A stretch of 64,000 nucleotides of DNA from a bacterium (GCA_030693425.1 JAUYAM010000005.1:12950-76949); one strand, 5' to 3'; counted from the stretch's first letter, positions 20,407 to 64,000 are shown. The notes: generated by a model not told the origin, from the sequence alone. Numbers and translations are program-made.

Positions 20407-20456
20407 ACGAATTCTACGAATTACGAATTTATACGAATATACCTTTTCGTAAATTA
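20405..20456. repeat. TTCGTA/ACGAAT word array abutting the dnaA start codon
   Basis: Sequence atacgaattctacgaattacgaatttatacgaatat...ttcgtaaatt. A related array lies at 30091-30120 in front of the virB4-like gene. Confidence 0.85.
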
Positions 20457-20521
20457 TAGAGATATGTTTTGAGATGATCTATTATATCTTTTGGCAAGCA
20501 AAAACGCAAAAAGAGATTAAG

Positions 20522-20552
20522 TTTTCCACATCCATTGATAAACTGTGGATAA
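20522..20552. promoter_or_regulatory. convergent pair of DnaA boxes
   Basis: TTTTCCACA (20522-20530) and TGTGGATAA (20544-20552). The second is the perfect reverse complement of TTATCCACA. Confidence 0.65.
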
Positions 20553-20626
20553 AGGGTGGAACAACAGAGAACAAACTTAGTCATATATTATCGCAATCTG
20601 CGCGTCTCGTTGGTATTTTACCAAAT

Positions 20627-20646
20627 TTACACGATCGTGGATTTTT
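20627..20646. repeat. CACGATCGTGG palindrome family, copy P1
   Basis: ttaCACGATCGTGGattttt with a central CGATCG. Related copies at 20697, 43292 and 43917. Confidence 0.8.
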
Positions 20647-20696
20647 CGTAAGCTTTTGTTCAGGAAATATCGTTTTCAAATGAGACTTTACGAATT

Positions 20697-20716
20697 TTAC
20701 ACGATCGTAGATTTTT
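20697..20716. repeat. CACGATCGTGG palindrome family, copy P2 (1 mismatch)
   Basis: ttaCACGATCGTAGattttt, 70 bp after P1 with the same flanks. Confidence 0.75.
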
Positions 20717-20921
20717 GGCAATCTTCCTGATCCTAAATTTTCTATGTCACAGGCACATTAGTTTTACTACAATTTCCCGTCTCGCAAGTCGTGCACGTCT
20801 TTTTTTAAACGATTTAACCACCTCTTCTGTGATCAGATTTTAGATGATTTAATACGGAGAGTTGTTTTGCGGAGTAAAACCTGCTAGACTGATTGATGAA
20901 ACTTTGTTATTAATTTTCGCC

Positions 20922-27495: not shown

Positions 27496-28285
27496 TTGAA
27501 GGCGGCGAACTAGTCAGTTCCATGTAAACGGAAATCGTCCAAAAGGGCAAAGCGCCAATAAGAGGAACAATTTCGCCGATAAAGGCGAGAACTACTCTCA
27601 AGACTCTGGCGCCGACTTTGACGGCTTTGCCTCCGGCTTTGGCGGCTTTGGCGGCTTTGGCGGCAGCCTGTTTCGTTTTTTTCCCGATCGCCTCAACCGC
27701 TTGTTTTCTCTGCGCGTGCTGTTCAACTACCCCCTCTGCATATTCTTCAGAGCTAAACTGCTTTCCCATAATCATAGCCCTTAGCATGATCAGTCCGCCG
27801 ATGACTATCAGCCCGACGATATCTGAAATCCAGGAAAAAATTTCACCAAGGCCGTAAGCGACGTCGAGCACGGTAAAAAGTATGCCGGCAAAATCAATGA
27901 TCAAAGCCGTGCCTATCAGAAAAATTCCCCAGGGAGTCAGAAGCTCCAGGTATTTGCTGCCCGTAGAGGTTTCGGTTTCCTCGTCCGATTCCTCCTCCTC
28001 CTCATCATCATCATCATCCTCTTCCTCACCTTCTTCTTCCCCTTCCTCCTCTTCGGTTCTCTCTGTCGTTTCTTCTCGCTCGATTTTTTCCGAACCAAAA
28101 TCTTTTTCGGCTTTCTCTTCTGTAGAAGAAGGACTTTCTGCTCTTGGCCCGCCCGGTTTTTCGATTTCAGGGGAAGGAATGTTGTCCGGCGCCGGCGCGC
28201 CGGGTTTTTCCATTCCCGAAGAAGGAGGTTTCCCCGCCGGAGGAGTCTTTATTGGCACTGGTTTTGGCACAGTTCCTCCTGCCAT
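27488..28285 (-). CDS. membrane protein with Pro/Glu-rich disordered N-terminus
   Basis: 265 aa. A poly-E/D tract (EEEEGEEEGEEEDDDDDEEEE) followed by 3-4 predicted TM helices. Confidence 0.55.
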   Translation of the reverse strand: MAGGTVPKPVPIKTPPAGKPPSSGMEKPGAPAPDNIPSPEIEKPGGPRAESPSSTEEKAEKDFGSEKIEREETTERTEEEEGEEEGEEEDDDDDEEEEESDEETETSTGSKYLELLTPWGIFLIGTALIIDFAGILFTVLDVAYGLGEIFSWISDIVGLIVIGGLIMLRAMIMGKQFSSEEYAEGVVEQHAQRKQAVEAIGKKTKQAAAKAAKAAKAGGKAVKVGARVLRVVLAFIGEIVPLIGALPFWTISVYMELTSSPPSNE

Positions 28286-28297
28286 GGTATTTATTAT

Positions 28298-30085
28298 TTA
28301 CTCTTCTGATTCTTGTTTAGCTCTTCTAATTTTCAAAACTTCTTCTGGAGAAGTGGTAATAATTTGGTCTTCGGCGTAAGAAGCGACAATGCGGATGGCA
28401 ACGTGTTTTTGGCCGGCGATGAACACTCCCTCGCCGATGCCAGATTGCAAAAGGAGCATTTTTTCCTCCTCGGTCAGGTTGAAAGTTTTTTGGACTTGGT
28501 TGACTATGGCCGGGCTTTGCTTCAAGAGAAGCTGGAGCGAGGAGTTGGCGACAATGGCCAAACCGTAGCTTGATCCCAGGAAGTCGCCGACGTCCTGAGT
28601 GATAGTTGTTAATCCCAGCCAGTATTTTCTCGCTCTTTTGGCCACGCCAAAAAGAAAAGAGGCGCCATCGTTAGACTGCATCAGCCACCAGGCCTCATCG
28701 ATCAAGAGCATCCTTTTTTTGAGCTGGGAGCGGATCTTGTTCCAGATATACCTCATAACTACGAACATCGCCATTGGCCGAAGTTCATCCTCCATATCTC
28801 TGATGCCGAAAACGACCATGTTTTTGTCCAGAGAAAGATTGCTCGGCTGGTTGAAAAAGTTGGCAAAAGTCCCCTGGGTGAACTTTCTCAATCTTCTTAC
28901 CAAAGAATCCCCTCCCTCCATGGTTTCGAGAACCGATTCCAAATCGGACATAAGGGGGATGTTTTCCTGCCACTTTAAGGGATCGGATTCCGGGGTAATG
29001 TCTTTGGCGGCATAGGTTTCGGCTATGGCCCGGTCGATAATGGCGTCTTCTTCTGCGGTTAAACCGCCGAGCATAAGTCGCAAGAGCCCCACGAGGTTAA
29101 TGACGTTAGATCTAAGAACGTCTTCGGGATCTTCATCTTCCCGGGGCAGAGGCAGGTCAAAAGGGTTTATATGGTTTTCCGAGCTCAGGGAAATGTTGAA
29201 GAACGATCCACCGACGGCATCAACCAGGAACTTATATTCGTTCTCCGGGTCGATGACAATCGTGTCGACCCCGGTCATCAGAGACCTTAGGATTTCAACT
29301 TTCGCGAAGTAGCTTTTACCCCCACCCGATTTACTGAAAATTAAGAGGTTCGCATTCTCTAAACTAAAGCGGTCAAAAAGAATCAGGGAATTATTGTGCC
29401 GGTTGATGCCGTAAAGAGTCCCTTCGTTTGAACTTAAGTCAAAAGAAATGAAGGGAAAAGTTGAAGAAAGCGGGCTGGTGTTCATCGGCGTGTGGATGTC
29501 TAACAAATCCAGACCGTAAGGAGAAGTAGAAATGAATCCTTGTTTTTGTTGGAAAAGGGCGGGCTTGATGAAAATCAGTTTTCCCTCGAGGATTGATCTC
29601 AAGGTCAGCTCGACGTCGCGGAGTTGTTTTTCCGTGTCAGCGTAAATAGTAATATAGAGGCCGAACCTGAACATTTTTTCCTGGGCGGTTTGCAATCCGT
29701 CCCTCAAAGCTTCCATGTCTTGGAAAGCGGTTTCCAGGACAGGATCTCGGATGAGTCCTTTTTCCTGCCGGTCAATCAGCTCCGCTTGGACCTCGGTCAC
29801 TTTTTTTCTCAATAATTTCAAGATCAAGCCGGTATCAATCGGGTGGATGAAAAAACTAATGTCCATCGGCGTTTCGAGGTTGATGATGGGCGAAAACCAG
29901 CCGGTGGAAAGGTACCGGGGATAAGAAAAGGCGAAAAAGGATTTGGCGAGTTTTTCCCCGATCTTCAAAAAGCTCTGCTGGATTTCAATCGAAGACGGGG
30001 CGATAAAATCCCTGACGTTGAGAATCTCGGCTTCGAAGATTTTTTCCGGCAAACCCCGGTTTTTTTTAAAAAAGGGAATGTTCAT
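28298..30085 (-). CDS. VirB4/TraC/TrsE-like type IV secretion ATPase
   Basis: 595 aa. P-loop FSKSGGGKSYFAK, VIDPENEYKFL, INPFDL, Walker B MLLIDEAWWLM, and an N-terminal YPRYLSTGW-type VirB4 domain. Confidence 0.8.
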   Translation of the reverse strand: MNIPFFKKNRGLPEKIFEAEILNVRDFIAPSSIEIQQSFLKIGEKLAKSFFAFSYPRYLSTGWFSPIINLETPMDISFFIHPIDTGLILKLLRKKVTEVQAELIDRQEKGLIRDPVLETAFQDMEALRDGLQTAQEKMFRFGLYITIYADTEKQLRDVELTLRSILEGKLIFIKPALFQQKQGFISTSPYGLDLLDIHTPMNTSPLSSTFPFISFDLSSNEGTLYGINRHNNSLILFDRFSLENANLLIFSKSGGGKSYFAKVEILRSLMTGVDTIVIDPENEYKFLVDAVGGSFFNISLSSENHINPFDLPLPREDEDPEDVLRSNVINLVGLLRLMLGGLTAEEDAIIDRAIAETYAAKDITPESDPLKWQENIPLMSDLESVLETMEGGDSLVRRLRKFTQGTFANFFNQPSNLSLDKNMVVFGIRDMEDELRPMAMFVVMRYIWNKIRSQLKKRMLLIDEAWWLMQSNDGASFLFGVAKRARKYWLGLTTITQDVGDFLGSSYGLAIVANSSLQLLLKQSPAIVNQVQKTFNLTEEEKMLLLQSGIGEGVFIAGQKHVAIRIVASYAEDQIITTSPEEVLKIRRAKQESEE

Positions 30086-30090
30086 TGTTC

Positions 30091-30120
30091 TACGAATATA
30101 CGAATACGCTAATATGCTAA
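30091..30120. repeat. TTCGTA/ACGAAT word array abutting the virB4-like start codon
   Basis: tacgaatatacgaatacgctaatatgctaa. On the sense (minus) strand it reads TATTCGTATATTCGTAGAACA-ATG. Compare TATTCGTATAAATTCGTAATTCGTAGAATTCGT-ATG in front of dnaA. Confidence 0.8.
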
Positions 30121-30131
30121 CAGCTAAAATA

Positions 30132-30791
30132 CTAAAAGCTCGTTGGTTTTTCTTGGGTGAGTTCAGGAGGAATTTCGGGGTAATAGCCGACTTCGGCTTC
30201 GCTTGGATGGTGGATGGCCCAGAAAAACTCGATCAATTCCGGAGTCGCCAGAGGAACGACCTGCAGCTCCATTCTTTTTAATCCCAAAGCCAAAAATTCC
30301 ATTCTTTGCCAGAGCTGGGACTTGCATCTCTGGAACTGGTCTTCGGTCAAAGTCGGGAATTTAGGCATTTTAAAAAGGCTGCCTGAAGCGGACACTCCCT
30401 GGGCTTCCAAGATAGTGTAGGGGATGACCATAAAAAAAGTTTTGCTCATAATCGTTCCTCCCTCGACCAATCCCTTGATGAAATCATAGTAGCTGGCGGT
30501 TTGGGTTTTCATCAGCTCGCCGAGCTGAAGGTCCTCCAAACGTTTTATCTGGTCCAGATAGCCGGTAATGTTCAGTTTTCTCGATTGGACAATGATCTGG
30601 ACGGAAAAATCCAGGGAGTTTATAAAGCTCTGGAATTGGTAGATGATCGCCTGCTGCTCTTCGTCCGACTTCAAAGCAAAGTTCAGGGAGGAGATCATCA
30701 TTACTCCCCGGAGGCCCTTATTCTTTAGAATAATCATCCCCTCCCTAATCTGATCAATCTCTAAAAAGTCTTGAGTTGAAGATTTGGCCAT
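30132..30791 (-). CDS. stand-alone VirB4 N-terminal-domain-like protein
   Basis: 219 aa. SSLNFALKSDEEQQAIIYQFQSFINSLDFSVQIIVQS resembles, from memory, the first ~200 aa of Gram-positive conjugative VirB4 homologues. It has no P-loop. Confidence 0.45.
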   Translation of the reverse strand: MAKSSTQDFLEIDQIREGMIILKNKGLRGVMMISSLNFALKSDEEQQAIIYQFQSFINSLDFSVQIIVQSRKLNITGYLDQIKRLEDLQLGELMKTQTASYYDFIKGLVEGGTIMSKTFFMVIPYTILEAQGVSASGSLFKMPKFPTLTEDQFQRCKSQLWQRMEFLALGLKRMELQVVPLATPELIEFFWAIHHPSEAEVGYYPEIPPELTQEKPTSF

Positions 30792-30794
30792 AAT

Positions 30795-31220
30795 TTATCT
30801 TTGGGTGTCGACTCGGTTCGACATTTCTTTTAAGCGGCTTCTGCCGATCACTTTCAGTTCGGGCGAAATTATCTTCGGTTTGACTACCCTGCTTAAATCT
30901 TCCGTTTTTTTCCAGACAATTCTCGGCGGCAGCTCTTTTTTCTTCCAGAGATAGATTCTTGAGGAAACAAAAAAACCGAAGAAATTTCCGAGGATGACAG
31001 GAAACGACCTTCCCTCGACTCTTAAAAAGGCCAGGGCGGCGGTGACGAGGGCGATGACGCCGCTGGCCAGGAGAAAGAGAAAGAAATTGGTTTTTGCTAC
31101 GGAAAGATAGACAAAACCGATAAAAGCCCCTCCGATCGCCAGCAAGATAAACTGCTTGAAAGTGAAGGGACCGGCAATCTTTGTCTCTTGGTCAATGAAT
31201 TGAGGAACTTGAAACCGCAT
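30795..31220 (-). CDS. PrgI/VirB3-like small membrane protein
   Basis: 141 aa. MRFQVPQFIDQETKIAGPFTFKQFILL start plus two TM helices, located just upstream of virB4-like genes. Confidence 0.6.
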   Translation of the reverse strand: MRFQVPQFIDQETKIAGPFTFKQFILLAIGGAFIGFVYLSVAKTNFFLFLLASGVIALVTAALAFLRVEGRSFPVILGNFFGFFVSSRIYLWKKKELPPRIVWKKTEDLSRVVKPKIISPELKVIGRSRLKEMSNRVDTQR

Positions 31221-31230
31221 TTCTTAGTTG

Positions 31231-31255
31231 GCTAGCGGCTAGCGTCTAGCGGCTA
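31231..31255. repeat. heptamer array (GCTAGCG x3.5) flanking the four-helix-bundle gene
   Basis: gctagcg gctagcg tctagcg gctag. It contains CTAGCGTCTAG, whose reverse complement recurs at 31638-31648. Confidence 0.85.
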
Positions 31256-31617
31256 GTTTTTAATTCCAATTTTTTAATAAGAGTATTTAACATTTTTTGG
31301 ACTTCTTCGAGAAGATTTTCTGCTCTTGCGTAATTATTCTCGCGATATAAGTCTCCGGCGATTATAAGCTGGGTTTCTAATTCGGCCGAAGAGCCATAAG
31401 CAATATGCAAGAATTGTAAAAACTCTTTTAAGGTTCTTCTCAAATGTCCCTCGGCGATATTAGAAGGAATCGAAACGGCTGCTCTCCTCATTTGAATAGA
31501 CAACCCATAAACCTCAGCATTCGGGAACTTGCCGGTAAGAATATAAATTTCTTTTACCAGCTCGATCGCCCTGTTCCATACCGTCAGTTCTTTATAAGAC
31601 TTTAAATACATACGCAA
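31246..31617 (-). CDS. four-helix-bundle protein (23S rRNA intervening-sequence protein family)
   Basis: 123 aa. YKELTVWNRAIELVKEIY...FPNAEVYGLSIQMRRAAVSIPSNIAEG...GSSAELETQL is the classic signature of this family. Confidence 0.85.
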   Translation of the reverse strand: MRMYLKSYKELTVWNRAIELVKEIYILTGKFPNAEVYGLSIQMRRAAVSIPSNIAEGHLRRTLKEFLQFLHIAYGSSAELETQLIIAGDLYRENNYARAENLLEEVQKMLNTLIKKLELKTSR

Positions 31618-31623
31618 AAGGAT

Positions 31624-31648
31624 CTAGACGCTAATCCCTAGACGCTAG
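31624..31648. repeat. CTAGACGCTA(G) repeats flanking the four-helix-bundle gene (inverted relative to 31231-31255)
   Basis: ctagacgcta atcc ctagacgctag. Confidence 0.8.
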
Positions 31649-31654
31649 TCGCTG

Positions 31655-32071
31655 TTATTCAATAGGTTCTCGGTAAGCGTCTGGTTTTGCTGGCGGCTTG
31701 GGAACCGTTTCTGTTTTTTCCGTCGCTTCTTCTCCTGCGCCAGCGTCAGTTTTATGGAGGCTGGCCAGGCTTCTTTTTATCGGAGCAAAGATAAAGCGGT
31801 TTATTTCTTGAGAGATTGTTTTGGCGGTTTCTTCTTCCAAGGTTACCTCCTTTTCCAGAGACGGCAGAAATTCTCCCGGTGGCAAGAGCCCGTAAAGAAC
31901 GTCTCTGACCAATGCGGAAATTTTAGTCGCCCTTTCGTCAAAGATTTTGTTGTTGTCAAAAATCTGCTCAAGGGCGTTGAGATTTTCCTCGGAGTCAATT
32001 GCTTGCTTGATGTCTTCCGGCAGCTGAGAATAAAGCTTCATTATCTGCTCTCGAGTGTATTTTTTGATCAC
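31655..32071 (-). CDS. hypothetical protein in the T4SS-like operon
   Basis: 138-aa soluble ORF with an acidic/Pro-rich tail. No family recognised. Confidence 0.5.
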   Translation of the reverse strand: MIKKYTREQIMKLYSQLPEDIKQAIDSEENLNALEQIFDNNKIFDERATKISALVRDVLYGLLPPGEFLPSLEKEVTLEEETAKTISQEINRFIFAPIKRSLASLHKTDAGAGEEATEKTETVPKPPAKPDAYREPIE

Positions 32072-32114
32072 GGCAGTTTATTTTAATAAAATAATCGCAT
32101 TCCGATTAATCCGG

Positions 32115-35042
32115 CTATGCTAATCTCCTTAACACGCCTTTTTCTATTCTGTATCTTCCTCCCCTAATGCGATCCTTGATATCCAGAGTGTCGGTGTCTT
32201 TACGGACAATGCCTGCATCGTATTTTACCCGGATCGGCCTGCCTTGGCGCGTCGTATCCTTTAGGAACATGGGGGGGGCTTTCTCGTCTTTTGCCCTAAT
32301 TCTTTCCTGTCCGGACATCGGGCTGGGGTATCTTTCATAAGGAGAATTTGTTCCGTCTTCCCATTTCAGGGTAGTTGCCCCCTTGACCGTGCCGGCAACC
32401 TCGACCCCTGGTTTAAGCGAATGAGGATCTAACTGTTGCCGTGGATCGTTTGTGGCAGGAGAGAACGATGAAGGGCCTGTCGCTGGCGGTTGGGGGCTAG
32501 TCGGCGGTTGTGTCCCGATAGGAGGAATTGGCGGCGTTCCGCTAACAAATTTTCCGCCCGTTGGAGTTTTTATAGGCTTTATTCCAGAGGGAACCGCTGG
32601 GACCGCTAATCCGGACGGGGTTGTTACGTAACCAGTAGTCGCTCCAGAAACTGGCGTTGGAGGTGCCACAGGCGGGACAACAGGCGGAGGCGGTGTCGGC
32701 GGCGGAGGTACATACGGCGGTCCTCCAGCTCCGCAGCGCGGGCACGGTATTCCTGAAGGAGTTGTCCCCCCACAAAACGGACAAGTGGTTATCGTATGCA
32801 ACCAGTCTGGCTTGGCGATTTTGCCGTTAGCGAAATTTACATATTCATTAAGTTTGCCACGATCATTTAGCAATACTGGCTGCATGTTTTCATTAACAAA
32901 CGGCTGGTTATTTTGATCTTTCGCTACCTGGAATCCATACATATCCTGGTTGTGATTGATTGTGTCTCTTAACACTTGGGAATTTCTCTTTGCCATGTTC
33001 CAGCTGCCGTTGCCCTCGACCCAGGCGGCGAGCTTGCCTCCTCGCTCCGGGCCGAATTTTTCATAAAAAGCTTTGATGTGACTTGAACCTCTGAAGCGGG
33101 CTATTTTTGACAAAATTAGAGGATCGTCCGCCGATTCTCCCGACAACTGGCGTATGGCTTCTTGGTCTAAGCCCTTGACCGTTCTATCAAGAGACCAGGT
33201 TTGGGCAATGGCCTGGTAAAGAGGATCAGTTTTTCCGGCGGTGATAACTTGGTCGATAGTTTGGCTTAAGTCGGCCAATCGGGTAGTTCGCCATCCGGAA
33301 AACTCTTTATCCAGATACGCAACTGTCGCTTTTTCGTCGTCGGTTTGGTTTGCCACCGCTTTTGTTGATAATTCCCGAAACTCTTTTAAGACGGAATCCA
33401 TTTCGTCCTTATGTTCTTTCTTTGACGGATCGAGAAAGGTATCCCAGACGACTTTCTCTCTTGACAGCTGGATTACATCAGAAGTCGTTTCCCTAAGATG
33501 TCTTCTGGAGTATTTAGCCTGGGCGGTCAACCCCTTTTTCCTTAATTCTTCAAGAGCGGCATCCCCGGGCTTAAACAGGCCAGCCTCTCCTTTTTTCTTG
33601 GAAATCAAAGCAGTCGCCCCCGCCGCCCATAGATCTCTTTCTAGAGGTAAGAACCTGCCTTGATTTACGAGTAGTTTGGCTCCGGTATAATCTTCCTGGT
33701 CGACTAGCTGGTTGAGAGTTTTATCTTCCATAATTTTATCAATTTGGGTAGGAACGTCAGCTTTCTGTTTTTTCGCCTCAAGGGCGCCCCTTTTAGCCAG
33801 CCATGTCAAGCCCTTGCCGGGCAGGCTTTTGCCAAAATCCGCTTTCTCCGCGCCCTCAATAATACTAGTTGCGGTTTTAGTCGAGAGAATTTCTCTTTTA
33901 AGGCGTTCGGTTCCCCTGCCAATCACCTCTTTGCCTTTTGCGGTGCCTTTTTTAATGCCTTTCATGGCTAGGCCTTGTACGCCCCTGGCCGCGCTCGGGC
34001 CAAAGCGTTTGGCCGTAGACATGATGGCGCTGGCGCCGATAGCGCCGCTTGACAGACTGCCAAAAAAGCCAAAAGCAAGCAGAGCCTGGACAACCACATA
34101 CCTCATGATCGTGTTAAAGTCAATGACCGGCAGGAGCCCGAGAGTGAGAGCGCTTATCCCGGCGGGAATGGGCGGGATTGTCGGGTCGGTATCCACCAGC
34201 ACGAGCAGCTGTTCGGCCAGATAAAGGAAAAAAGCGGCGGAAACGCCGACAAACGACCATTGGAGAAACTGGTTCCACCAGGCGGAAAAGTATTTCCTAG
34301 TCGTCGGTAAGACATTAGCGAAGAAAGCCAGCGGAGAAAGAATGACCAAAATCCAGATGGCGACATAGCGCATTATGAAAAGGAAAGAGTAAAGAACCAG
34401 AAATAGGGCGGTAACGGTATTGAAGAAACCCATGGCCATGCTTCTGAAGATTATATCTATATGACCGGTCAGGTAACCGGGGAGGCTGGTAAAAGAGTTT
34501 TTGAGAGCGGCGTATTGAGAGACAGAGATCTCGACCAATGTATCAAAACTGGAAACGCCCTCGATAAAGAAATTCATGACAATATTGGCAGCGTCGACAA
34601 TCAGGCCGCAGATGGCCGGGGTGAAGTTCACCAAAAGGATCATCGCTATCAGCAATGGCAGGGTTTTTTTGGCGTGATATTCTCCTAATCTCAAGGCAGT
34701 CGCCAAGCCAATGACAACCAAGGCGAAAATGAATCCCATATTAGCCAGGTCCCTGGTGATCGCCCAGCCAGGAGCGACAATGCCGCCGGAAGTGTAAGGA
34801 AGAGTGATAAAGTACGGGCTGCTGACCAGTTGAAACAACAGGTTGGCGAATAATACAACCACCAAGCTGACGCCGACAAAAAACTGGAGGCTCATGGCGA
34901 GAATCGAACCGCCGATGGCTGCGGCTAAGACTCCGAAATAGGCCTGGCCCTGACTAAGAGGAATAGCCAGCCCGAACAGGACTAAGGCTAGCAAAGAGAC
35001 TTTTGTTGATAGCGAAACTTTTTTAAATAAAGAGTTTTTCAT
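32115..35042 (-). CDS. giant polytopic VirB6/TrbL-like membrane protein with zinc ribbon and poly-proline C-terminal region
   Basis: 975 aa. About 8 TM helices in the first ~370 aa, a ~330-aa helical soluble region, CPFCGG..CPRCG, then PPYVPPPPTPPPPVVPPVAPPTP and a ~150-aa C-terminal domain. Confidence 0.6.
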   Translation of the reverse strand: MKNSLFKKVSLSTKVSLLALVLFGLAIPLSQGQAYFGVLAAAIGGSILAMSLQFFVGVSLVVVLFANLLFQLVSSPYFITLPYTSGGIVAPGWAITRDLANMGFIFALVVIGLATALRLGEYHAKKTLPLLIAMILLVNFTPAICGLIVDAANIVMNFFIEGVSSFDTLVEISVSQYAALKNSFTSLPGYLTGHIDIIFRSMAMGFFNTVTALFLVLYSFLFIMRYVAIWILVILSPLAFFANVLPTTRKYFSAWWNQFLQWSFVGVSAAFFLYLAEQLLVLVDTDPTIPPIPAGISALTLGLLPVIDFNTIMRYVVVQALLAFGFFGSLSSGAIGASAIMSTAKRFGPSAARGVQGLAMKGIKKGTAKGKEVIGRGTERLKREILSTKTATSIIEGAEKADFGKSLPGKGLTWLAKRGALEAKKQKADVPTQIDKIMEDKTLNQLVDQEDYTGAKLLVNQGRFLPLERDLWAAGATALISKKKGEAGLFKPGDAALEELRKKGLTAQAKYSRRHLRETTSDVIQLSREKVVWDTFLDPSKKEHKDEMDSVLKEFRELSTKAVANQTDDEKATVAYLDKEFSGWRTTRLADLSQTIDQVITAGKTDPLYQAIAQTWSLDRTVKGLDQEAIRQLSGESADDPLILSKIARFRGSSHIKAFYEKFGPERGGKLAAWVEGNGSWNMAKRNSQVLRDTINHNQDMYGFQVAKDQNNQPFVNENMQPVLLNDRGKLNEYVNFANGKIAKPDWLHTITTCPFCGGTTPSGIPCPRCGAGGPPYVPPPPTPPPPVVPPVAPPTPVSGATTGYVTTPSGLAVPAVPSGIKPIKTPTGGKFVSGTPPIPPIGTQPPTSPQPPATGPSSFSPATNDPRQQLDPHSLKPGVEVAGTVKGATTLKWEDGTNSPYERYPSPMSGQERIRAKDEKAPPMFLKDTTRQGRPIRVKYDAGIVRKDTDTLDIKDRIRGGRYRIEKGVLRRLA

Positions 35043-35075: not shown

Positions 35076-36119
35076 TCATTCTAGCACAAAAGTTTTAGTC
35101 AAAGCCAGCCAGTTTTCAAGGCTGAGGGATTCAGCCCTGGCATTTGGTTCCAGCTTGTTTCCTAAAAGCCAATTCTTAATCTGACTTTTTGGCAACCCAA
35201 GTCCGGAGGCCAAGTTGTTAACTAGCTGTTTTCTCGGCTGGGAAAACCCAGCCTTCACAATTTTAAAAAATAATCTTTTGTTCTTCTCATTGAGAAAACA
35301 GTTATTTGTTCGGGTAATCTGTATGCCTTTTTCACGACCGTGAGATTCTTGCACCGATTGTTTTTGCCATTTTTGCGGAGTGATCTTTATAATAGCCGAG
35401 TCTACCTTGGGCTTTGGCCAAAAAGCGTTTTTAGAGACATAGCTGATAATTTTTGCCTCTGCGTAAAATTGAACCGAAATTGCCAGGAGATTCATTTTGG
35501 GCTTGGCACCCCGTCCTGAGCCCGTCGAAGGACAAATTCTTTGAGCCACTTCTTTTTGGACCATTAAGACCATCAGCTCGGGCGGGCAAGGCAATTCAAG
35601 CAAACAACGGATAATATGAGTAGCGGCATAGTAGGGCAAATTCGCCACGACCTTGTATTTAGTATCTGGTATCTTGTCCCTCGATTTCACTCGGGACAAC
35701 CCTGAGCTTGTCGAAGGGTTGTATCTAGTATTCGACGGCGATCGTATATTTTTCATACTAGATACTAAATACTCAATACTAGATACTAGTTCGCGGGCGT
35801 CGCCTTCAACAATTTCCACGTTTCTATTATCTTTAAACTTTTCTTTGAGCAAAGGTATCAGCCGGGGGTCTTTCTCTATGGTGACCACCCGACCCGCTTT
35901 TTGAGCCAGTTTTTCGGTCAAAACCCCCAAGCCCGGGCCGATTTCCAGGACCAGGTCGCCGGTTTTCAAGTCGGCAGCCTCGATTATCTTGTTCAAGACG
36001 CTTTTTTGGCGGAGAAAATGCTGACCAAGGTGCTTTTTGGGTTTAAGAACTCGACCAGCCTCGCTGGTATAGAGCTGGAGAACCTGTGGATGGCTGATTT
36101 GACTAGGCGGTTTTCTCAT
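35076..36119 (-). CDS. rsmA: 16S rRNA (adenine1518/1519-N6)-dimethyltransferase with two in-frame repeat insertions
   Basis: 347 aa (typical length ~260-290). Motifs LGQHFL, LEIGPGLGVLT, VANLPYY. The extra 45-aa and ~8-aa segments coincide with the repeat elements. Confidence 0.9.
   Translation of the reverse strand: MRKPPSQISHPQVLQLYTSEAGRVLKPKKHLGQHFLRQKSVLNKIIEAADLKTGDLVLEIGPGLGVLTEKLAQKAGRVVTIEKDPRLIPLLKEKFKDNRNVEIVEGDARELVSSIEYLVSSMKNIRSPSNTRYNPSTSSGLSRVKSRDKIPDTKYKVVANLPYYAATHIIRCLLELPCPPELMVLMVQKEVAQRICPSTGSGRGAKPKMNLLAISVQFYAEAKIISYVSKNAFWPKPKVDSAIIKITPQKWQKQSVQESHGREKGIQITRTNNCFLNEKNKRLFFKIVKAGFSQPRKQLVNNLASGLGLPKSQIKNWLLGNKLEPNARAESLSLENWLALTKTFVLE
35505..35531. repeat. short GC-rich element inserted in-frame in ksgA
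   Basis: ggcaccccgtcctgagcccgtcgaagg, encoding PSTGSGRGA on the minus strand. It shares the CTGAGC..GTCGAAGG core with the 35655-35789 element. Confidence 0.6.
35655..35789. mobile_element. 135-bp MITE-like insertion in-frame in ksgA (inverted heptamer arrays flanking two hairpins)
   Basis: Left arm gtattta gtatctg gtatctt. Core GTCCCTCGAtttcacTCGGGAC plus AACCCTgagcttgtcgaAGGGTT. Right arm catacta gatacta aatactc aatacta gatactag, the inverted heptamers. 135 nt equals 45 codons. Confidence 0.75.
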
Positions 36120-43352: not shown

Positions 43353-43901
43353 ATGGTTAAACTTAATACTTTAACGAAAAAAGTTTTACTTTTATTGGCT
43401 GGCGGATTAGCGCTTGGTTGTACTTATCATCCTGGCAGACAGTGGAAAATTATAAGGTCGGTTAATCGAGAATGGAAAAAAATTAATGAAAAAGAGCTTT
43501 GGCGCGAAATAAGGAAACTTTATCGTTCTAGGCTGGTGGAGAAGAAAGAAAATCCGGATGGCAGCCTTACTTTTGTTTTAAGCACGAAGGGGAAAATTAA
43601 AACCTTGAATTTCCGGTTTGAAAAAATTTGCTTGCAAAGGGAAAACTGGGATAAAAAATGGCGCTTGGTGATTTTTGATATCCCCGAGAGATTAAGGCAG
43701 GCAAGAGATGCTTTAAGGGAAAAGTTAAAACAACTTGGTTTTTACGAGCTCCAAAAAAGCGTTTTCGTTTTTCCTTATGAATGCGAAGACGAAATTGATT
43801 TTGTGATTGAATTTTTTGAGATGCGTCAATATGTCAGAACTATTTTGGCAGAGAAAATCGATAACGAGCTTCATCTGAAAAAAATATTTGACCTGATTTA
43901 A
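43353..43901 (+). CDS. PaaX-like / Cas2-fold regulator-like protein
   Basis: 182 aa. WDKKWRLVIFDIPERLRQARDALREKLKQLGFYELQKSVFVFPY matches the PaaX middle-domain pattern (W.G.W..V.F.IPE..R..R..L...L...GF). Confidence 0.5.
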   Translation: MVKLNTLTKKVLLLLAGGLALGCTYHPGRQWKIIRSVNREWKKINEKELWREIRKLYRSRLVEKKENPDGSLTFVLSTKGKIKTLNFRFEKICLQRENWDKKWRLVIFDIPERLRQARDALREKLKQLGFYELQKSVFVFPYECEDEIDFVIEFFEMRQYVRTILAEKIDNELHLKKIFDLI

Positions 43902-48729: not shown

Positions 48730-49287
48730 TTAGGGTGCGCAGGGAAAAACAAACCAGTCTTGAATCCTTTGTCCGAGAATGCTGGCGGTCTGCAAGCCGA
48801 TGACAACGAAGAAAAGATTGACAAAAACCCAGGCGCCGTAAACAATCAACAGACCCATGGCAACGGAACCAATGATTGATTTCCCTTTTGTGATATAGGT
48901 TGGATTATAGCCGGAACCGATAATGAAGTAAGCTCCGCCGATGACGGTCAGCAAAATGGCTACTGGCGGGATGATCGTGAGCAGAAAGAAGTCAATAATA
49001 CCCTTGGCCATGACGAAAAAATGGCAGAGCTTGCAACGGTATTCACAATCTGGTGGATTGACCGGCATGCAGTCATATTTAACGGGGTCTGAAACTTCCG
49101 ATGGGTCGCAGCATCTTCCCAATCTGCCGCCGACGCCTCTGCCGGTGCCGCCGCCGCAGGGAACCAGGCCGTCAGCTGAAACCCAGGAAGCGATGGCTAG
49201 CAATATCAGCGAAATAATGACGATTTTTTTCATATATTTATTAATGTAGCTTATTAAATTAATATTTTCAACATGTCCCTGGCTCAT
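48730..49287 (-). CDS. Cys-containing TrbC/VirB2-like (T4SS-pilin-like) protein
   Basis: 185 aa. Signal peptide, Cys-rich stretch ending CKLCHFF, then two TM helices separated by GGAYFIIGSGYNP. Confidence 0.5.
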   Translation of the reverse strand: MSQGHVENINLISYINKYMKKIVIISLILLAIASWVSADGLVPCGGGTGRGVGGRLGRCCDPSEVSDPVKYDCMPVNPPDCEYRCKLCHFFVMAKGIIDFFLLTIIPPVAILLTVIGGAYFIIGSGYNPTYITKGKSIIGSVAMGLLIVYGAWVFVNLFFVVIGLQTASILGQRIQDWFVFPCAP

Positions 49288-49501: not shown

Positions 49502-51010
49502 ATGACAATTCCCAAAGAAGTAAAAAAGGTGATTTTGAGCCTAGAAAAAGCCGGATTTAAGGCTTATGTTGTCGGCGGTTGCACCAGGGATTTTTTGCAG
49601 GATATCGAGCCCAATGATTGGGATATTGCCACTTCAGCCCGTCCAGAGGAAATTCAGAAGATCTTCCCTGACAATTTTTACGAAAACGCTTTTTTGACGG
49701 TTACGATTCTGACAAAAAACAGGAACCCGCGGCTTAAAGAGATCGAGATCACTACTTTTAGATCTGAAGCCAAGTATACGGATAAAAGGCATCCCGACGA
49801 GATTAGATTCGCCAAGACTTTAAAAGAGGATTTGGCGAGAAGGGACTTTACTATCAACGCCATCGCCCTGAAAATACCAGATACTAGATACCCTCCTTCG
49901 CCAAAGCTTCGGAGGGCAGGCAAGATACTAGATACTAAATACTCGGTTAATGATCCCTTTAACGGACAAAAGGATTTAAAAGATAGAATTATTAGGGCGG
50001 TCGGCGACCCGAACGAAAGGTTTAATGAAGACGCTTTGCGCCTGATGAGAGCGGCCCGGTTGGCAACGGCTTTGAACTTTAAGATCGAACCGAAAACCAA
50101 GCAGGCGATTATCAAGAATGCCAGCTTACTGAAACTAATTTCTAAAGAGAGAATCCGCGACGAGTTTATCAAGACGATTATGACCGCAGAAGCGGCCAAA
50201 GGAATAGAACTTCTCCACGAACTCGGGCTTTTAGAGTTCGTGGCGCCGGAACTGGAAGAGGGCATCAACGTCAGCCAAAACAAACATCACACCTATAACT
50301 GCTGGGACCACAACGTTCTTTCCCTGGATTATGCGGCCAAGAAAGGATTCGGCCTTGAAGTTAGGCTGGCCAGCCTGTTTCACGACATCGGCAAGCCTCG
50401 CGCCAAACGCGGCCAAGGGCCCAACGCCACTTTCTACAACCATGAAGTTATCGGCGCGAGAATGGCCCAAGAAATTCTAGAGCGCCTGAAATTTCCCCGA
50501 GAACTGGCAGGAAAAATCGTTCTCCTGGTCAGATACCACCTTTTCTACTACAACGTCGGCGAGGTCGGCGAGAGCTCGGTTAGACGCCTGGTCAGAAACG
50601 TCGGTCTGGAGAATTTTCAGCAATTGCTTGAGGTGAGAATGTCAGATAGAATCGGATCAGGAGTTCCCAAAGCCGAGCCTTATAAGCTGCGACATTTGAA
50701 GTATATGGCAGAAAAGGTGTCCCAAGATCCCCTGTCTGCCAAGATGCTTAAAGTTGACGGCAACGACGTTATGGAGGCCCTAAAGATTAAGCCTGGACCT
50801 AAGGTTGGCCAGGTTCTATCCGTGCTCTTGGAATTAGTGATCGAAGATCCCAAGAACAACAAAAAGGATTATTTGAAAAAAGAAATCAGTCGGTTGGGCG
50901 CTTTATCCGATAAAGAATTGGGGCGGCTGGCAGAGAAGGCGGAAAGAGAAGTTCAGGATATAGAGCAGAAAAAAGACGAGATGACGAAAGAGAAATATTG
51001 GGTCACATAA
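49502..51010 (+). CDS. cca: CCA-adding enzyme / poly(A) polymerase family with HD domain, carrying an in-frame repeat insertion
   Basis: 502 aa. GGCTRDFL, NDWDIAT, RRDFTINAIA, HD domain (HDIGKP). Confidence 0.9.
   Translation: MTIPKEVKKVILSLEKAGFKAYVVGGCTRDFLQDIEPNDWDIATSARPEEIQKIFPDNFYENAFLTVTILTKNRNPRLKEIEITTFRSEAKYTDKRHPDEIRFAKTLKEDLARRDFTINAIALKIPDTRYPPSPKLRRAGKILDTKYSVNDPFNGQKDLKDRIIRAVGDPNERFNEDALRLMRAARLATALNFKIEPKTKQAIIKNASLLKLISKERIRDEFIKTIMTAEAAKGIELLHELGLLEFVAPELEEGINVSQNKHHTYNCWDHNVLSLDYAAKKGFGLEVRLASLFHDIGKPRAKRGQGPNATFYNHEVIGARMAQEILERLKFPRELAGKIVLLVRYHLFYYNVGEVGESSVRRLVRNVGLENFQQLLEVRMSDRIGSGVPKAEPYKLRHLKYMAEKVSQDPLSAKMLKVDGNDVMEALKIKPGPKVGQVLSVLLELVIEDPKNNKKDYLKKEISRLGALSDKELGRLAEKAEREVQDIEQKKDEMTKEKYWVT
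49877..49945. mobile_element. ~69-bp heptamer-flanked hairpin insertion in-frame in cca
   Basis: ccagatactagatac-CCCTCCttcgccaaagcttcGGAGGG-caggcaagatactagatactaaatact. It encodes PDTRYPPSPKLRRAGKILDTKYS between the conserved INAIA and DPFNG. Confidence 0.7.
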
Positions 51011-52049: not shown

Positions 52050-52289
52050 TTGGAACAAGAGCTAATTGTGGATAACTTTATGCGCAGCGAGATTAAAAAA
52101 TTCGGCAAGAGAATTAGGGAAATTCGCTTGAAGAAGAAGATGTCGCAAGGCGATGTGGCAGAGATTTTAGGAGTTCACCGAACATATATTAGTAGTATGG
52201 AAAGAGGCTTGAGAAATCCATCTCTTTTGACGATTAAGAAATTTGCTCAGGCGTTCGGTATAAAAACAAAAGATATGCTTAATTTTTGA
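52050..52289 (+). CDS. XRE-family helix-turn-helix regulator
   Basis: 79 aa. MSQGDVAEILGVHRTYISSMERGLRNPSLLTIKKFAQAF. ATG at 52080 is an alternative start. Confidence 0.85.
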   Translation: MEQELIVDNFMRSEIKKFGKRIREIRLKKKMSQGDVAEILGVHRTYISSMERGLRNPSLLTIKKFAQAFGIKTKDMLNF

Positions 52290-61707: not shown

Positions 61708-61890
61708 ATCAGCGAAGCTGAGTTCAAGAAGCTAACGCAATAATCAAATCTAGTTTAAGATGATAGACATGAACAAAACATACAAGAGTTTAGCTCTAAT
61801 ATTTAACTCCTGGGGTTGCAATGGATACTTAGAAAGATTCAACCAAATTCTCCAAGAAGAATGCCTTTCTCGATTTACAGGACATTTATA

Positions 61891-61947
61891 GGACATGCGA
61901 TGTCCAATATTTCCACTTATTTTACCTCAGTCAGACATGCGATGTCC
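61891..61947. promoter_or_regulatory. pair of GGACAT-GCG-ATGTCC operator-like palindromes
   Basis: GGACATGCGATGTCC (61891-61905) and AGACATGCGATGTCC (61933-61947), 42 bp apart and 55-110 bp upstream of a TTGACA box. Confidence 0.45.
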
Positions 61948-62092: not shown

Positions 62093-62974
62093 ATGGCTCT
62101 GAAGAAAGGGTTGCTCGCCATTCGAGCAGCTTGGCTGTGGGAGTGGCAGGAAAAAGGAATTCTCGAGGTAGCCTCCCTTTTCGGAACAAGAGTGCTTATT
62201 GTTGCCGAGAATGCCCGCCTAAGAAGGACCTGTTATCAAAAAGGAGGTAAAGTCTCAACTCGCTACTGGCTTGGAAAGGGAACCATTCTTGTTCCTCGGT
62301 GGGATCCATTGAAATTTCATTATGATCTTGTTGCCGACAAGAGAGTAGAAATCATGAGCCCCGAAGAACAAAGGGAAAGAGGTTTTTATCGCCTAGACAA
62401 TGGAGACCTCTTAGTGCTTATCTATCAGCACCTTGAGGATGCGCTGCACTTTCAGCGTCAGCAATGGCACATATTGCTTGAAAGTTATCCTCAAGAACTC
62501 CAAGGGATTTCCAACAATCTCGCCAAAATCGAAGAAAGGGCGTTGGAACACAGTGGCGATAGACTCAGCGGTTTGGGATACGATTATCGGCGTCGAAGAG
62601 AAGAAATCCACCGCATCATTACACGCTTAGCAGGGAGAGAAAAAGCAGCGGCAATTCTCTTGAAAGTTCTCAACGAAGAGATTGCCCTTGCTCAGAAAAG
62701 TCTCCTTTTTGCCCTTTCCAGCCAGCCGGTAAAAGATTTACTGAAAGGCATTTCAGTAAACGACCAAGGATTGAGGGCTTATCTGGTTAGAGTTTATCTG
62801 AATCTTAGCCAGATGAGGGTTCGACCGGTGGTGAAATCGCTTGCCCGGGCACAGTCAAATTTACGAGCAGCTCTGGGGAGTCTCGCTGTCGGGGAAGCAA
62901 GCAGGATGGTTCATTGCATAAAACTGGCGATCAAAAATTTAGAGGAGGCGAAAAAAAACCTTCAACAGTCGTAA
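62093..62974 (+). CDS. hypothetical helical protein, unknown family
   Basis: 293-aa ORF with a strong Shine-Dalgarno (AGGAGG 7 nt upstream) and a hairpin terminator downstream. No motif recognised. Confidence 0.6.
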   Translation: MALKKGLLAIRAAWLWEWQEKGILEVASLFGTRVLIVAENARLRRTCYQKGGKVSTRYWLGKGTILVPRWDPLKFHYDLVADKRVEIMSPEEQRERGFYRLDNGDLLVLIYQHLEDALHFQRQQWHILLESYPQELQGISNNLAKIEERALEHSGDRLSGLGYDYRRRREEIHRIITRLAGREKAAAILLKVLNEEIALAQKSLLFALSSQPVKDLLKGISVNDQGLRAYLVRVYLNLSQMRVRPVVKSLARAQSNLRAALGSLAVGEASRMVHCIKLAIKNLEEAKKNLQQS

Positions 62975-62994
62975 GGTTCACAATTCCTAAACAG

Positions 62995-63031
62995 TTGGGT
63001 TATCCTAAACAAGATAACCCAATTTGTTTTT
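62995..63031 (+). terminator. rho-independent terminator
   Basis: TTGGGTTATC-ctaaacaa-GATAACCCAA followed by TTTGTTTTT, 20 nt after the stop codon. Confidence 0.8.
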
Positions 63032-63041
63032 ATGACAAAAT

Positions 63042-63075
63042 GAAGCTCCCTGCGGCGAGACCGCAGGGTATCTTC
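63042..63075. ncRNA. hairpin alpha (CCCTGCGG-CGAGA-CCGCAGGG core)
   Basis: GAAG-ct-CCCTGCGG-cgaga-CCGCAGGG-tat-CTTC. Confidence 0.4.
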
Positions 63076-63102
63076 TCTCCCAATGTATTTTTATTATTAA
63101 TT

Positions 63103-63147
63103 GCCGCTTTTCATCCCCGCGGCAAGACCACGGGGTATTCAAGCGGC
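63103..63147. ncRNA. hairpin beta (CCCCGCGG-CAAGA-CCACGGGG core)
   Basis: GCCGCTT-ttcat-CCCCGCGG-caaga-CCACGGGG-tattc-AAGCGGC. One T-A to C-G compensatory change relative to alpha. Confidence 0.4.
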
Positions 63148-63240
63148 TTTGAGATAAAGAAAACACGGATTCATCCGCAGGGACTCTGTTTTAAGCAAAT
63201 TTTAATGAAGAAAAACAAACGAGAAAAAAGCGTTTTGAGG

Positions 63241-63282
63241 GTTGACGTCTTAAAACTGCTATAGCAATGATAAGTCGTCAAC
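63241..63282. ncRNA. hairpin with conserved loop ACTGCTATAGCAATGA
   Basis: GTTGACGTCTTA-aaactgctatagcaatga-TAAGTCGTCAAC: a 12-bp stem with 1 mismatch. Confidence 0.45.
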
Positions 63283-63309
63283 GAGAACGGGGTGTAACAT
63301 TAGCCAACA

Positions 63310-63326
63310 TTGACGACTATCGTCAA
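63310..63326. promoter_or_regulatory. palindrome TTGACGA-CTA-TCGTCAA
   Basis: Perfect 7-3-7 inverted repeat, flanked by CA..CG like the copies at 63663 and 63690. Confidence 0.45.
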
Positions 63327-63339
63327 CGAAAGGGAAGTG

Positions 63340-63377
63340 CAACATTTAGAACAGACGGTCGTCTCTCTTAAATGTTG
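63340..63377. ncRNA. nested hairpin CAACATTTA...AGACG-gt-CGTCT...TAAATGTTG
   Basis: A 9-bp outer stem and a 5-bp inner stem, read directly from the sequence. Confidence 0.4.
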
Positions 63378-63604
63378 TAGTAAGTTTTTCTTAGGCGGCT
63401 GCCGGCTTTGCGGTTGACGCCGGATTTGTCCTGGTTTGAGATGTAAGACACTTGCCGCTTTGAAAAAGTCAGGTATAAGACAGGCGCTTGACTCGGGTGC
63501 TTAACCTGGTTAAGCAACCGGCAAGAAAATGAAAAATAGTCAATAGAAATTAGTGATTATTTTCTATTTTCCAATTTCCATAACTATTTTCCAAGTTCAC
63601 CGCC

Positions 63605-63640
63605 CCGTAGAATTACTGCGATAGCAATGATTCTACGGGA
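63605..63640. ncRNA. hairpin with conserved loop ACTGCGATAGCAATG
   Basis: CCCGTAGAAT-tactgcgatagcaatg-ATTCTACGGG: a perfect 10-bp stem. The loop is ~15/16 identical to the 63253-63270 loop, while the stem sequence is unrelated. Confidence 0.45.
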
Positions 63641-63662
63641 CAACAATGTAAAATAAGTCCAT

Positions 63663-63706
63663 TGATGACTGTCGTCAATTCTAGTTCATTGATGACTGTC
63701 GTCAAC
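63663..63706. promoter_or_regulatory. two tandem palindromes TTGATGA-CTG-TCGTCAA
   Basis: Identical 17-mers at 63663-63679 and 63690-63706 (27-bp spacing), each preceded by CA. Confidence 0.5.
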
Positions 63707-63715
63707 GAAGCTGAT

Positions 63716-64000
63716 TTACTTTCCTCCCGGTTTTCCTCCTGGCTTTGTTGGAGAAGCATTGAAATAATTAATCAATCCTATATAGAGAGCATCGGCTTCT
63801 TGATTTACTCTATCTCCATTAAGAACGAATTTAGCAGATCCGTCAGAATTAGAACAAACTTGGGTTGATGTTCCGTTTAGATATTGTTGAGCCTCCCAGT
63901 CATTGGTGATGTAATAAGCTTCAGTTAAAGCAGAAACCAAATGGCCATAAACCGTCATTCCGTAACCGCCGTTGTCTAAACCTTCGTCTTTATAAACATT
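63716..64000 (-). CDS. C-terminal part of a hypothetical (probably secreted) protein; gene continues beyond the window
   Basis: The frame is open from the window edge to stop 63716, ending ...ASPTKPGGKPGGK. No family recognised. Confidence 0.45.
   Translation of the reverse strand, partial: NVYKDEGLDNGGYGMTVYGHLVSALTEAYYITNDWEAQQYLNGTSTQVCSNSDGSAKFVLNGDRVNQEADALYIGLINYFNASPTKPGGKPGGK

Follow-up and report, generated by a model that had tools for sequence, protein, structure and literature searches.

Two hairpins with a shared apical core and promoter-like palindromes beside them at a non-coding locus of a Patescibacteria-type chromosome

We analysed a 64,000-nucleotide stretch of bacterial DNA (GCA_030693425.1 JAUYAM010000005.1:12950-76949; hereafter the window), focusing on two hairpins near its right end that carry nearly the same apex on different stems. 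The window represents a chromosome of the tiny-genome Patescibacteria type whose replication origin (oriC) lies at ~20.5 kb, between dnaN-dnaA and rpmH-rnpA-yidC-jag. The hairpins occupy, together with a cluster of palindromes, a 742-bp gene-free gap between two convergent genes: the open reading frame (ORF) ORF293, a conserved hypothetical gene on the plus strand (62093-62974) with its own conserved terminator (62993-63024), and an Amidase_3 gene on the minus strand that ends at 63716 (L001 11624-12403). Six-frame translation, searches of every small ORF against Pfam and PHROGs, and tblastn queries taken from the genes neighbouring the locus in the relative L124 revealed no credible coding potential and no pseudogene trace in the gap; after these searches, a coding or pseudogene origin was dropped. 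Two further candidates were rejected. ORF293 as a nucleic-acid enzyme fails because it has no Pfam match and its low-confidence model (predicted local distance difference test score 69) resembles only generic helical bundles, and the hairpin region as oriC is ruled out because oriC sits beside dnaA, ~43 kb away.

Hairpin 1 (63241-63282) is a 42-nt near-palindrome with arms GTTGACGTCTTA and TAAGTCGTCAAC. Its outer stem spans 12 positions with one T-T mismatch and is separated by an internal loop from an apical stem that closes on a 4-nt loop. Hairpin 2 (63604-63639) presents the same apical element on arms CCCGTAGAAT and ATTCTACGGG, which form 10 perfect pairs; the stems of the two hairpins are unrelated in sequence. 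Both are much more stable than shuffled sequence, as RNA or as DNA. As RNA, hairpin 1 reaches a minimum free energy of -16 kcal/mol for the plus strand (z -3.7) and -18 kcal/mol for the minus strand (z -6.1); hairpin 2 reaches -23.1 and -26.4 kcal/mol, respectively, with z near -8. Across the pair, RNA z-scores range from -3.7 to -8.3, and the single-stranded DNA folds range from -8.8 to -11.9 kcal/mol. The 521-nt stretch from 63200 to 63720 as a whole also folds far below shuffled sequence (z = -8.65 minus, -6.24 plus). Neither hairpin leads into a U-run, whichever strand is read, and a terminator scan flagged neither.

The shared element is a 17-nt core, ACTGC[T/G]ATAGCAATGAT, whose two copies lie on the same strand, 360 nt apart, and are identical at 16 of 17 positions: ACTGCTATAGCAATGAT at 63255-63271 (read on the minus strand, AUCAUUGCUAUAGCAGU) and ACTGCGATAGCAATGAT at 63615-63631. 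No further copy occurs in the window or in ~11 kb of flanking sequence (3.3 kb beyond it, in L001, and 7.7 kb before it, in L160); 0.12 matches are expected in a scan that allows up to two mismatches. The core is an imperfect palindrome (AYTGC-NNNN-GCART) that folds into an apical stem of 3-5 bp with a 4-nt loop. On the minus strand, AUUGC pairs with GCAGU through one U-G wobble beneath a UAUA or UAUC tetraloop, whereas the plus strand has a C-A mismatch at the position of the wobble. Two core differences are synonymous in one reading frame (TAIAMI), and no conserved ORF surrounds the cores.

The hairpin pair is non-random and orderly. The original prediction gave sequences and coordinates that are correct for both hairpins, and its central claim, that different stems display one apical sequence 360 nt apart, is borne out, as the stems are wholly exchanged and pairing is kept. 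Its description of an open 16-nt loop needs correction, since the core folds on into the apical stem and leaves only 4 bases unpaired. We likewise recovered the companion that it had assigned to each hairpin, a CATTGAYGAC-N-TCGTCAA unit that begins 24 nt past hairpin 1 and 19 nt past hairpin 2, and we agree that the outer stem of hairpin 1 is composed of TTGACG/CGTCAA half-sites. The latter relationship extends beyond the stem: a 45-nt tandem duplication on the plus strand (63275-63346; TCGTCAACGAGAACGGGGTGTAACATT and TCGTCAACGAAAGGGAAGTGCAACATT) ties the right arm of hairpin 1 and its flank to the right half of the adjoining palindrome.

These companions are copies of a 17-bp palindrome with an 8-1-8 layout, TTGACGAC-N-GTCGTCAA. 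Palindrome A (TTGACGACTATCGTCAA) lies at 63310-63326, next to hairpin 1. Palindromes B1 (63662-63678; TTGATGACTGTCGTCAA, with the minus-strand reading TTGACGACAGTCATCAA) and B2 (63689-63705; TTGATGACTGTCGTCAA) are tandem copies with a 27-bp period, and B2 starts 10 nt past the amidase stop. A fourth copy, overlooked in the original prediction, is a perfect palindrome at 13480-13496 (TTGACGACAGTCGTCAA), in a lamin-tail-domain gene, where it falls in the variable linker. In a congener whose copy of this gene is 90.5% identical at the nucleotide level across the aligned part, the site is kept with one mismatch (TTGACAACAGTCGTCAA). The palindrome scan returned 10 strand-wise matches against 0.17 expected. 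Allowing up to four mismatches, we found no more good copies in the window, and no weaker copies in its other promoter regions or upstream of its XRE (52050-52289) and PaaX-like regulator genes. Dispersed copies of the kind seen with repetitive extragenic palindromes or miniature inverted-repeat elements are likewise absent, as ~78 kb of this genome contains only the two cores and the four palindromes. The palindrome string had no match in the literature searched.

All four palindromes contain TTGACG followed, 16-18 nt downstream, by TANNNT, which corresponds to the spacing of a sigma-70 promoter. In palindrome A, the minus-strand TTGACG would form the -35 hexamer of TTGACG-18-TAATGT, running from 63326 with a predicted -10 at 63297-63302 and a start near 63290. 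On the same strand, B1 provides TTGACG-17-TATTTT from 63678 (predicted -10 at 63650-63655, start near 63643) and B2 provides TTGACG-16-TAGAAT from 63705 (predicted -10 at 63678-63683), whose hexamers agree with the consensus at 10 of 12 positions. The 13480 site is promoter-like on the plus strand, reading TTGACG-17-TATCCT with TATCCT at 13503-13508. Among the 53 TTGACG hexamers of the window, six have a TANNNT partner at 16-18 nt, and four of these six fall within the palindromes. With a TANNNT background of 0.04-0.056 per position, ~0.3 partners would be expected among the six palindrome hexamers, against the four seen. A consensus scan independently recovered two of the four promoter-like sites. 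Taken together, the four sites give the palindrome the look of a symmetric protein-binding site with a -35 box built into it.

The three predicted promoters of the cluster all point leftward. With starts placed ~7 nt past the -10 hexamer, the predicted starts at 63643 and 63290 lie 4 and 8 nt ahead of hairpins 2 and 1, respectively, on the minus strand. A leftward transcript of ~130 nt from hairpin 1 could end at a terminator-like hairpin with a T-run on this strand, at 63164-63179. This arrangement suggests that such a transcript would be nested in a longer one beginning at hairpin 2. As judged from the ORF293 promoter (TTGACA-17-TATTTG) and its counterpart in the relative L124 (TTGACA-17-TAATGA), the organism employs canonical promoters.

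Several additional repeats populate the gap. An imperfect 18-bp hairpin (CAACATTTAGAACAGACG/CGTCTCTCTTAAATGTTG) spans 63340-63377, and a small palindrome (CGGGTGCTTAACC-T-GGTTAAGCAACCG) occupies 63494-63520 in a more GC-rich middle segment. An AT-rich segment (63525-63600) with nested inverted and direct repeats, including two copies of CTATTTTCCAAKTTC, folds into a long hairpin adjoining hairpin 2. A second terminator-like hairpin, farther downstream of the leftward promoters at 63068-63048, has its T-run on the minus strand. When the minus strand is folded, B2 pairs with B1 in a composite hairpin of -20 kcal/mol followed by UUAUUUU, 10 nt past the amidase stop. Perfect hairpins of at least 10 bp number 13 in the window, mostly at gene ends, versus 1-2 expected.

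Comparison of syntenic loci, identified through ORF293 homologues (L124-L131 and L161-L167), placed this gap in a wider genomic context. In the relative L167 (1208-1400), the ORF293 homologue, its terminator and tRNA-Gly (minus strand) follow one another directly, an empty site. In the present genome, ~3.4 kb is inserted between ORF293 and tRNA-Gly(TCC) (L001 14329-14402), made up of the gap, the amidase gene and a further pair of genes; the slot at L001 11624-14402 corresponds to the window from 63716 to ~66494. A third genome, L126 (5368-9670), carries a different 4-kb cargo in the same slot together with a duplicated tRNA 3′ fragment (TGGAGCGGG...), and L124 (6955-7086) has an att-like fragment. 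Relatives share with this genome only the ORF293 terminator and a 15-nt anchor. The slot between the ORF293 homologue and tRNA-Gly is an insertion hot spot, and the gap region is inserted DNA. We found neither an att repeat (a duplicate tRNA-Gly 3′ end) nor a remaining integrase gene in this region of the genome. The amidase is 84% identical to the L124 copy (5022-5768), versus 71% for ORF293, and the neighbourhoods and orientations of the two amidase genes differ; this combination suggests that the gene was rearranged locally or belongs to a mobile cassette.

The other side of ORF293 also bears repeats and a transposase-like fragment. A short ORF (61760-61891) resembles the C-terminal motif of rve-type transposases (NGYLERFNQILQEEC; rve_3, E = 0.005), and because it lies in a 542-bp gap upstream of ORF293 that measures 80 bp in relatives, it is probably an insertion sequence (IS) remnant. 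By this remnant, also upstream of ORF293, a small hairpin (GGACATGCGATGTCC) occurs twice, at 61891-61905 and 61933-61947, 42 nt apart.

Among the syntenic loci, only L130 contains a core-like site. There, an ORF293 homologue with 55% identity is followed by a 759-bp gene-free stretch containing GTTGACGA-TC-TGCTAAAGCAGT-AATT, in which the core-like site abuts the GTTGACGA half-site. Across ~150 kb of related sequence, the string TGCTANNGCAGT would be expected 0.3 times and is seen three times, in the two cores described here and in L130. Generic local alignment is marginal, with a score of 32 versus a shuffled 95th percentile of 26-30. The L130 core has the symmetric form CTGC...GCAG. The position that is U-G (minus strand) or C-A (plus strand) in the present genome is C-G in L130, which is compatible with minus-strand pairing. 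These features make the L130 site a probable relative of the core.

A second element is shared with L130. To the left of the hairpin cluster, two GC-rich hairpins lie 68 nt apart within 63037-63149 (CCCTGCGG-CGAGA-CCGCAGGG and CCCCGCGG-CAAGA-CCACGGGG), with a partial third copy at 63173-63187. Their homologue in L130 (7427-7527) is clear, as the flanking elements AAAATGAA, TGCCGCTT-CATCC and GGTATC are common to both genomes and the stem changes are compensatory. On the minus strand, the first GC-rich hairpin is followed by the conserved, terminator-like UUCAUUUU. The pair is a candidate small structured RNA and has no Rfam match. The order of the core site and the GC-rich pair differs between L130 and this genome.

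To search for further members of the hairpin family, we surveyed sequence and RNA collections. At gathering scores, Rfam returned only four tRNAs from the whole window, and a permissive search of 62800-64000 yielded nothing real, the best hits reaching 12-20 bits with E-values of 3.5-9.8. A genome scan with the 14-base core (596 Gb) gave at least 120 matches, all single and in unrelated taxa. The metagenome scan with core plus half-site gave two matches, both attributable to chance and within coding genes; viral scans with four patterns returned no clusters and no hairpin context; and blastn of the 746-bp gap against phage and plasmid collections found nothing. No such hairpin family emerged from the viral, plasmid, genome and metagenome collections searched, and the probable relative of the core in L130 has no long stem. 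The original prediction had proposed that occurrence of the loop sequence outside hairpins at comparable frequency would refute it. Among the foreign matches listed, 118 of 119 do lie outside hairpins, as chance would lead one to expect; with thousands of chance 14-base matches estimated in 596 Gb, the genome scan cannot provide that test and neither supports nor refutes the finding. In one of these genomes, a Ruminococcaceae metagenome-assembled genome (L067, minus strand, ~2372-2418), the core match tips a 15-bp bidirectional terminator-like hairpin (AAAAAATCACCGC...GCGGTGATTTTTT), probably by coincidence.

Our best reading of the locus, the likeliest of those considered although still less likely than not, is a set of operator-bearing promoters that would drive small non-coding transcripts opening with paralogous leader hairpins. 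The locus would then be the non-coding control part of the ~3.4 kb inserted at the tRNA-Gly(TCC) slot. The TTGACGAC-N-GTCGTCAA palindrome would serve as a putative operator for a dimeric DNA-binding protein and would hold the -35 of a sigma-70-type promoter. Firing leftward on the minus strand, the three cluster promoters would start just ahead of hairpins 2 and 1, which would become the 5′-terminal leader stem-loops of two nested non-coding transcripts. The palindromes are better accounted for as -35 and operator elements of leftward promoters, and on that view the hairpins would be transcript leaders and not DNA origin or recombination hairpins. The apical AUCAUUGCUAUMGCAGU, with its 5-bp stem, U-G wobble and UAUM tetraloop, may form a common recognition or stability module that binds a protein, pairs with another sequence or stabilises the transcript; the outer stems would need only to pair. 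The repeats, the folds, the promoter-like geometry, the lack of coding potential and the inserted setting are observed, and transcription, its strand, the binding of a protein to the palindrome and the purpose of the apex are predictions.

Several observations weigh against this reading. The strand signal is inconsistent: as RNA, B1 and B2 pair better when read from the plus strand, where they have U-G in place of the C-A of the minus strand, opposite to the core. With only two full copies of the hairpin, the covariation rests on a single comparison, and the TANNNT test was conceived after the data had been seen and is therefore supportive and no proof. The L130 core has neither the long outer stem nor a convincing -10 hexamer, and its lack of the stem weakens the idea that a long hairpin is essential. 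No candidate regulator gene adjoins the palindromes. The B2+B1 composite could simply terminate the amidase operon, and an operator would be oddly placed inside a gene, as the copy at 13480 is; no model explains that copy.

The inserted context raises a rival explanation, unlikely but with a real chance of being correct, in which the locus is an inert relic. A phage, plasmid or integrative element would have entered at tRNA-Gly and then decayed, so that only its control region or one end is left, with operators, promoters, and nut-like or end hairpins whose repeats survive simply because too little time has passed since insertion. No syntenic relative has the segment, its slot being empty in L167 and filled with other cargo in L126; the rve-type transposase fragment lies on the other side of ORF293, a neighbouring gene has a partial phage tail-tube domain, and the loss of integrase gene and att repeat alike is what such a relic would show. 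Set against this, both stems, three near-perfect palindromes and their -10 partners are perfectly maintained, which is more order than decay should leave. The perfect palindrome lies 50 kb off in a resident gene and is retained by the congener with one mismatch, and the adjoining amidase is of resident type, 84% identical to the copy in a relative.

The position of the region between two convergent genes invites a second explanation, which we regard as quite unlikely: the hairpins would be 3′ untranslated-region structures that terminate or stabilise the amidase operon transcript (minus strand) and ORF293 read-through, the shared apex being a by-product of local duplication or gene conversion. 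The composite hairpin with its UUAUUUU just past the amidase stop fits this, as does the concentration of perfect hairpins at gene ends elsewhere in the window. Yet the U-run of a terminator is missing after hairpins 1 and 2 on both strands, ORF293 already has its conserved terminator, and a 3′ region of ~740 bp far exceeds the needs of termination. The conserved 17-nt apex and the palindrome at 13480 would moreover be left unexplained.

The view taken in the original prediction, that the locus contains DNA hairpins or cruciforms for a strand-specific enzyme (an HUH Rep, relaxase or transposase) or a recombinase, appears improbable. Under it, the palindromes would be binding sites, and the two sites in direct orientation would mark the start and stop of a 360-nt segment. 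Part of this view stands, in that the pair is non-random and a conserved apex is carried on swapped stems beside binding-site-like repeats. Also in its favour, single-stranded DNA of either hairpin folds stably, hairpin 2 has an AT-rich neighbour, the DNA is inserted, and type IV secretion system-like genes exist ~30 kb away. The enzyme side of the prediction found no counterpart, with no Rep, recombinase, relaxase or nuclease gene in the window, the 3.3 kb beyond it or the 7.7 kb before it; no Y1 transposase, TnpA/TnpB or integron integrase gene in ~78 kb of this genome; and no tyrosine recombinase among the window ORFs, L001 or L160. The apex, which is largely paired, contains no known nick motif of the geminivirus/circovirus, pC194/phiX174, pMV158, pT181, MOBP, MOBQ, MOBF or MOBV types; the closest string, TAGAATTAC, is one mismatch from the circovirus nonamer and lies half within the stem. 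The defining features of integron attC sites and IS200/IS605 ends are lacking, and no such family emerged from the sequence collections. A narrower version, for which we see very little probability, would make the hairpins single-stranded start/stop or end-recognition signals for a hairpin-specific enzyme of a Patescibacteria element family that uses the tRNA-Gly slot, with the TTGACGAC palindromes as its binding sites and the L130 core plus half-site as a conserved element end.

Finally, it is similarly very improbable that the palindromes act as a centromere or help to organise the chromosome, as origin-proximal sites bound by a nucleoid protein or one resembling ParB, with the hairpins incidental. 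The copies are few, all 7-43 kb from oriC with three clustered, one is intragenic (parS sites often lie inside genes) and retained in the congener, and the canonical parS TGTTNCACGTGAAACA, to which the 17-bp palindrome is unrelated, has no match with up to three mismatches in the 64-kb oriC-bearing window, but parA and parB genes are absent beside oriC and elsewhere in the window, the cluster sits in inserted DNA that relatives do not have, a systematic -10 partner at promoter spacing is unexpected, and the hairpins go unexplained.

The survey of the window also yielded observations in regions remote from the hairpins. The probable oriC at 20380-20920, between dnaA (19054-20406, minus strand) and rpmH-rnpA, contains the DnaA-box-like TTTTCCACA and TGTGGATAA and two copies of the palindrome AAATYYACGATCGTRGATTT. 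A separate five-copy palindrome family with the core CCACGATCGTGG, variant in some members, occurs at 20624, 20694, 43293, 43917 and 56878, that is, with two copies in oriC and one on each side of the gene for a PaaX-like regulator (43353-43901). The family may consist of DnaA-box-like sites placed back to back, or be an operator for a regulator. Tandem heptamers GTATCTG and the reverse complement reported for them, ATACTAG/ATACTAA, occupy at least four intergenic places (1181-1215, 1378-1409, 35755-35789 and 49874-49944). The lamin-tail-domain gene has an in-frame TGA at 13842-13844 where homologues have a conserved Trp; read-through would give a full-length protein of ~410 aa with a C-terminal membrane anchor, and the codon could be a recent nonsense mutation, a sequencing error or a case of recoding.

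A Gram-positive-type cluster resembling type IV secretion (~25789-35042) encodes a VirB4/TraG P-loop ATPase (28298-30085), a PrgI-like protein (30795-31220) and several large proteins without a Pfam match; a separate gene resembling a type IV secretion system (T4SS) pilin lies at 48730-49287, and no relaxase gene was seen with the cluster. The VirB4, PrgI and T4SS pilin-like genes are ~15-35 kb from the hairpins. At the left end of the window, a Mur-ligase gene is fused to an archease domain (534-2348), and an RtcB RNA ligase gene lies two genes off (L160 7165-8613). Archease is normally a cofactor of RtcB, which makes its fusion to a Mur ligase unusual.

Collectively, the locus is a private non-coding cassette in inserted DNA. 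To our knowledge, next to nothing has been learned of how Patescibacteria control transcription, or of their small RNAs and mobile DNA. If the operator-promoter reading holds, the locus would offer a defined operator, TTGACGAC-N-GTCGTCAA, three promoters and a conserved RNA apex, and the apex could be used to fish for a binding protein and to seek a small regulon in an organism that is not culturable alone. Suitable patterns with which to look for further copies are TTGACGAC-N-GTCGTCAA and TGCTAWMGCAGT. If the region is merely a relic or a terminator region, it is ordinary. The locus also documents tRNA-Gly as a hot spot for insertion, one whose empty state is preserved in a relative.

The locus matches no known family or element but resembles several in part. 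With integron attC sites it shares an imperfect palindrome in which structure prevails over sequence. However, the conserved part here is the centre, whereas attC conserves the ends and leaves the middle free. The R'' (RYYYAAC) and R' (GTTRRRY) boxes are misplaced as well: in hairpin 1 the order is reversed (GTTGACG...CGTCAAC) and neither consensus is matched, and hairpin 2 has none. The sole exact RYYYAAC/GTTRRRY pair is in the 27-nt mini-palindrome at 63494-63520, too short for attC, and neither an integrase gene nor a cassette array accompanies the hairpins. As at the ends of IS200/IS605 elements and their non-autonomous derivatives (palindrome-associated transposable elements, PATEs), a short stretch of non-coding DNA is bounded by sub-terminal hairpins that face the same way. 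The end hairpins of that family are nearly identical, stem included, unlike the unrelated stems GTTGACGTCTTA and CCCGTAGAAT of the present pair, which is single, without dispersed copies in ~78 kb and without a TnpA/TnpB gene.

Rolling-circle and HUH origins, such as pT181 IR-II/IR-III, the pMV158 double-strand origin and the geminivirus/circovirus stem-loop with its iterons, combine a hairpin with neighbouring repeats. The present locus has palindromes 19-27 nt from each hairpin, which as protein-binding repeats beside a hairpin constitute a resemblance only. The conserved apex beside putative protein-binding repeats, the freely varying stem sequence, and the two directly oriented sites that could delimit a unit all recall such origins. 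Unlike them, the locus has no Rep or relaxase gene in the window or its flanks and no known nick sequence, its apex is mostly paired with 4 unpaired bases, and its repeats are palindromes that double as -35 boxes.

At the RNA level, CsrB/RsmZ (GGA loops) and RNAIII (C-rich loops) repeat one loop motif on different stems, and the present locus similarly presents one apical motif on unrelated stems within a single non-coding locus. Its shared element is 17 nt long and largely paired, in contrast to their loop motifs of 3-4 nt, and its transcript is only predicted. Hairpins 1 and 2 also differ from intrinsic terminators in having no following U-run, whereas the B2+B1 composite is a possible terminator.

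In lambdoid immunity regions, 17-bp OL/OR operators overlap pL and pR, which are followed by the nut boxB hairpins, whose stems in lambda are identical. The present locus differs in that no repressor, Cro or N-like gene and no boxA is found here, no sequence similarity is apparent, both modules run in the same direction instead of diverging, and the stems are unrelated. The architectural parallel nevertheless covers several layers: odd palindromes of 17 bp in an 8-1-8 layout, tandem copies that overlap a promoter -35 and spacer, a hairpin soon after each putative promoter with an apical sequence common to both sites, and a setting in horizontally acquired DNA.

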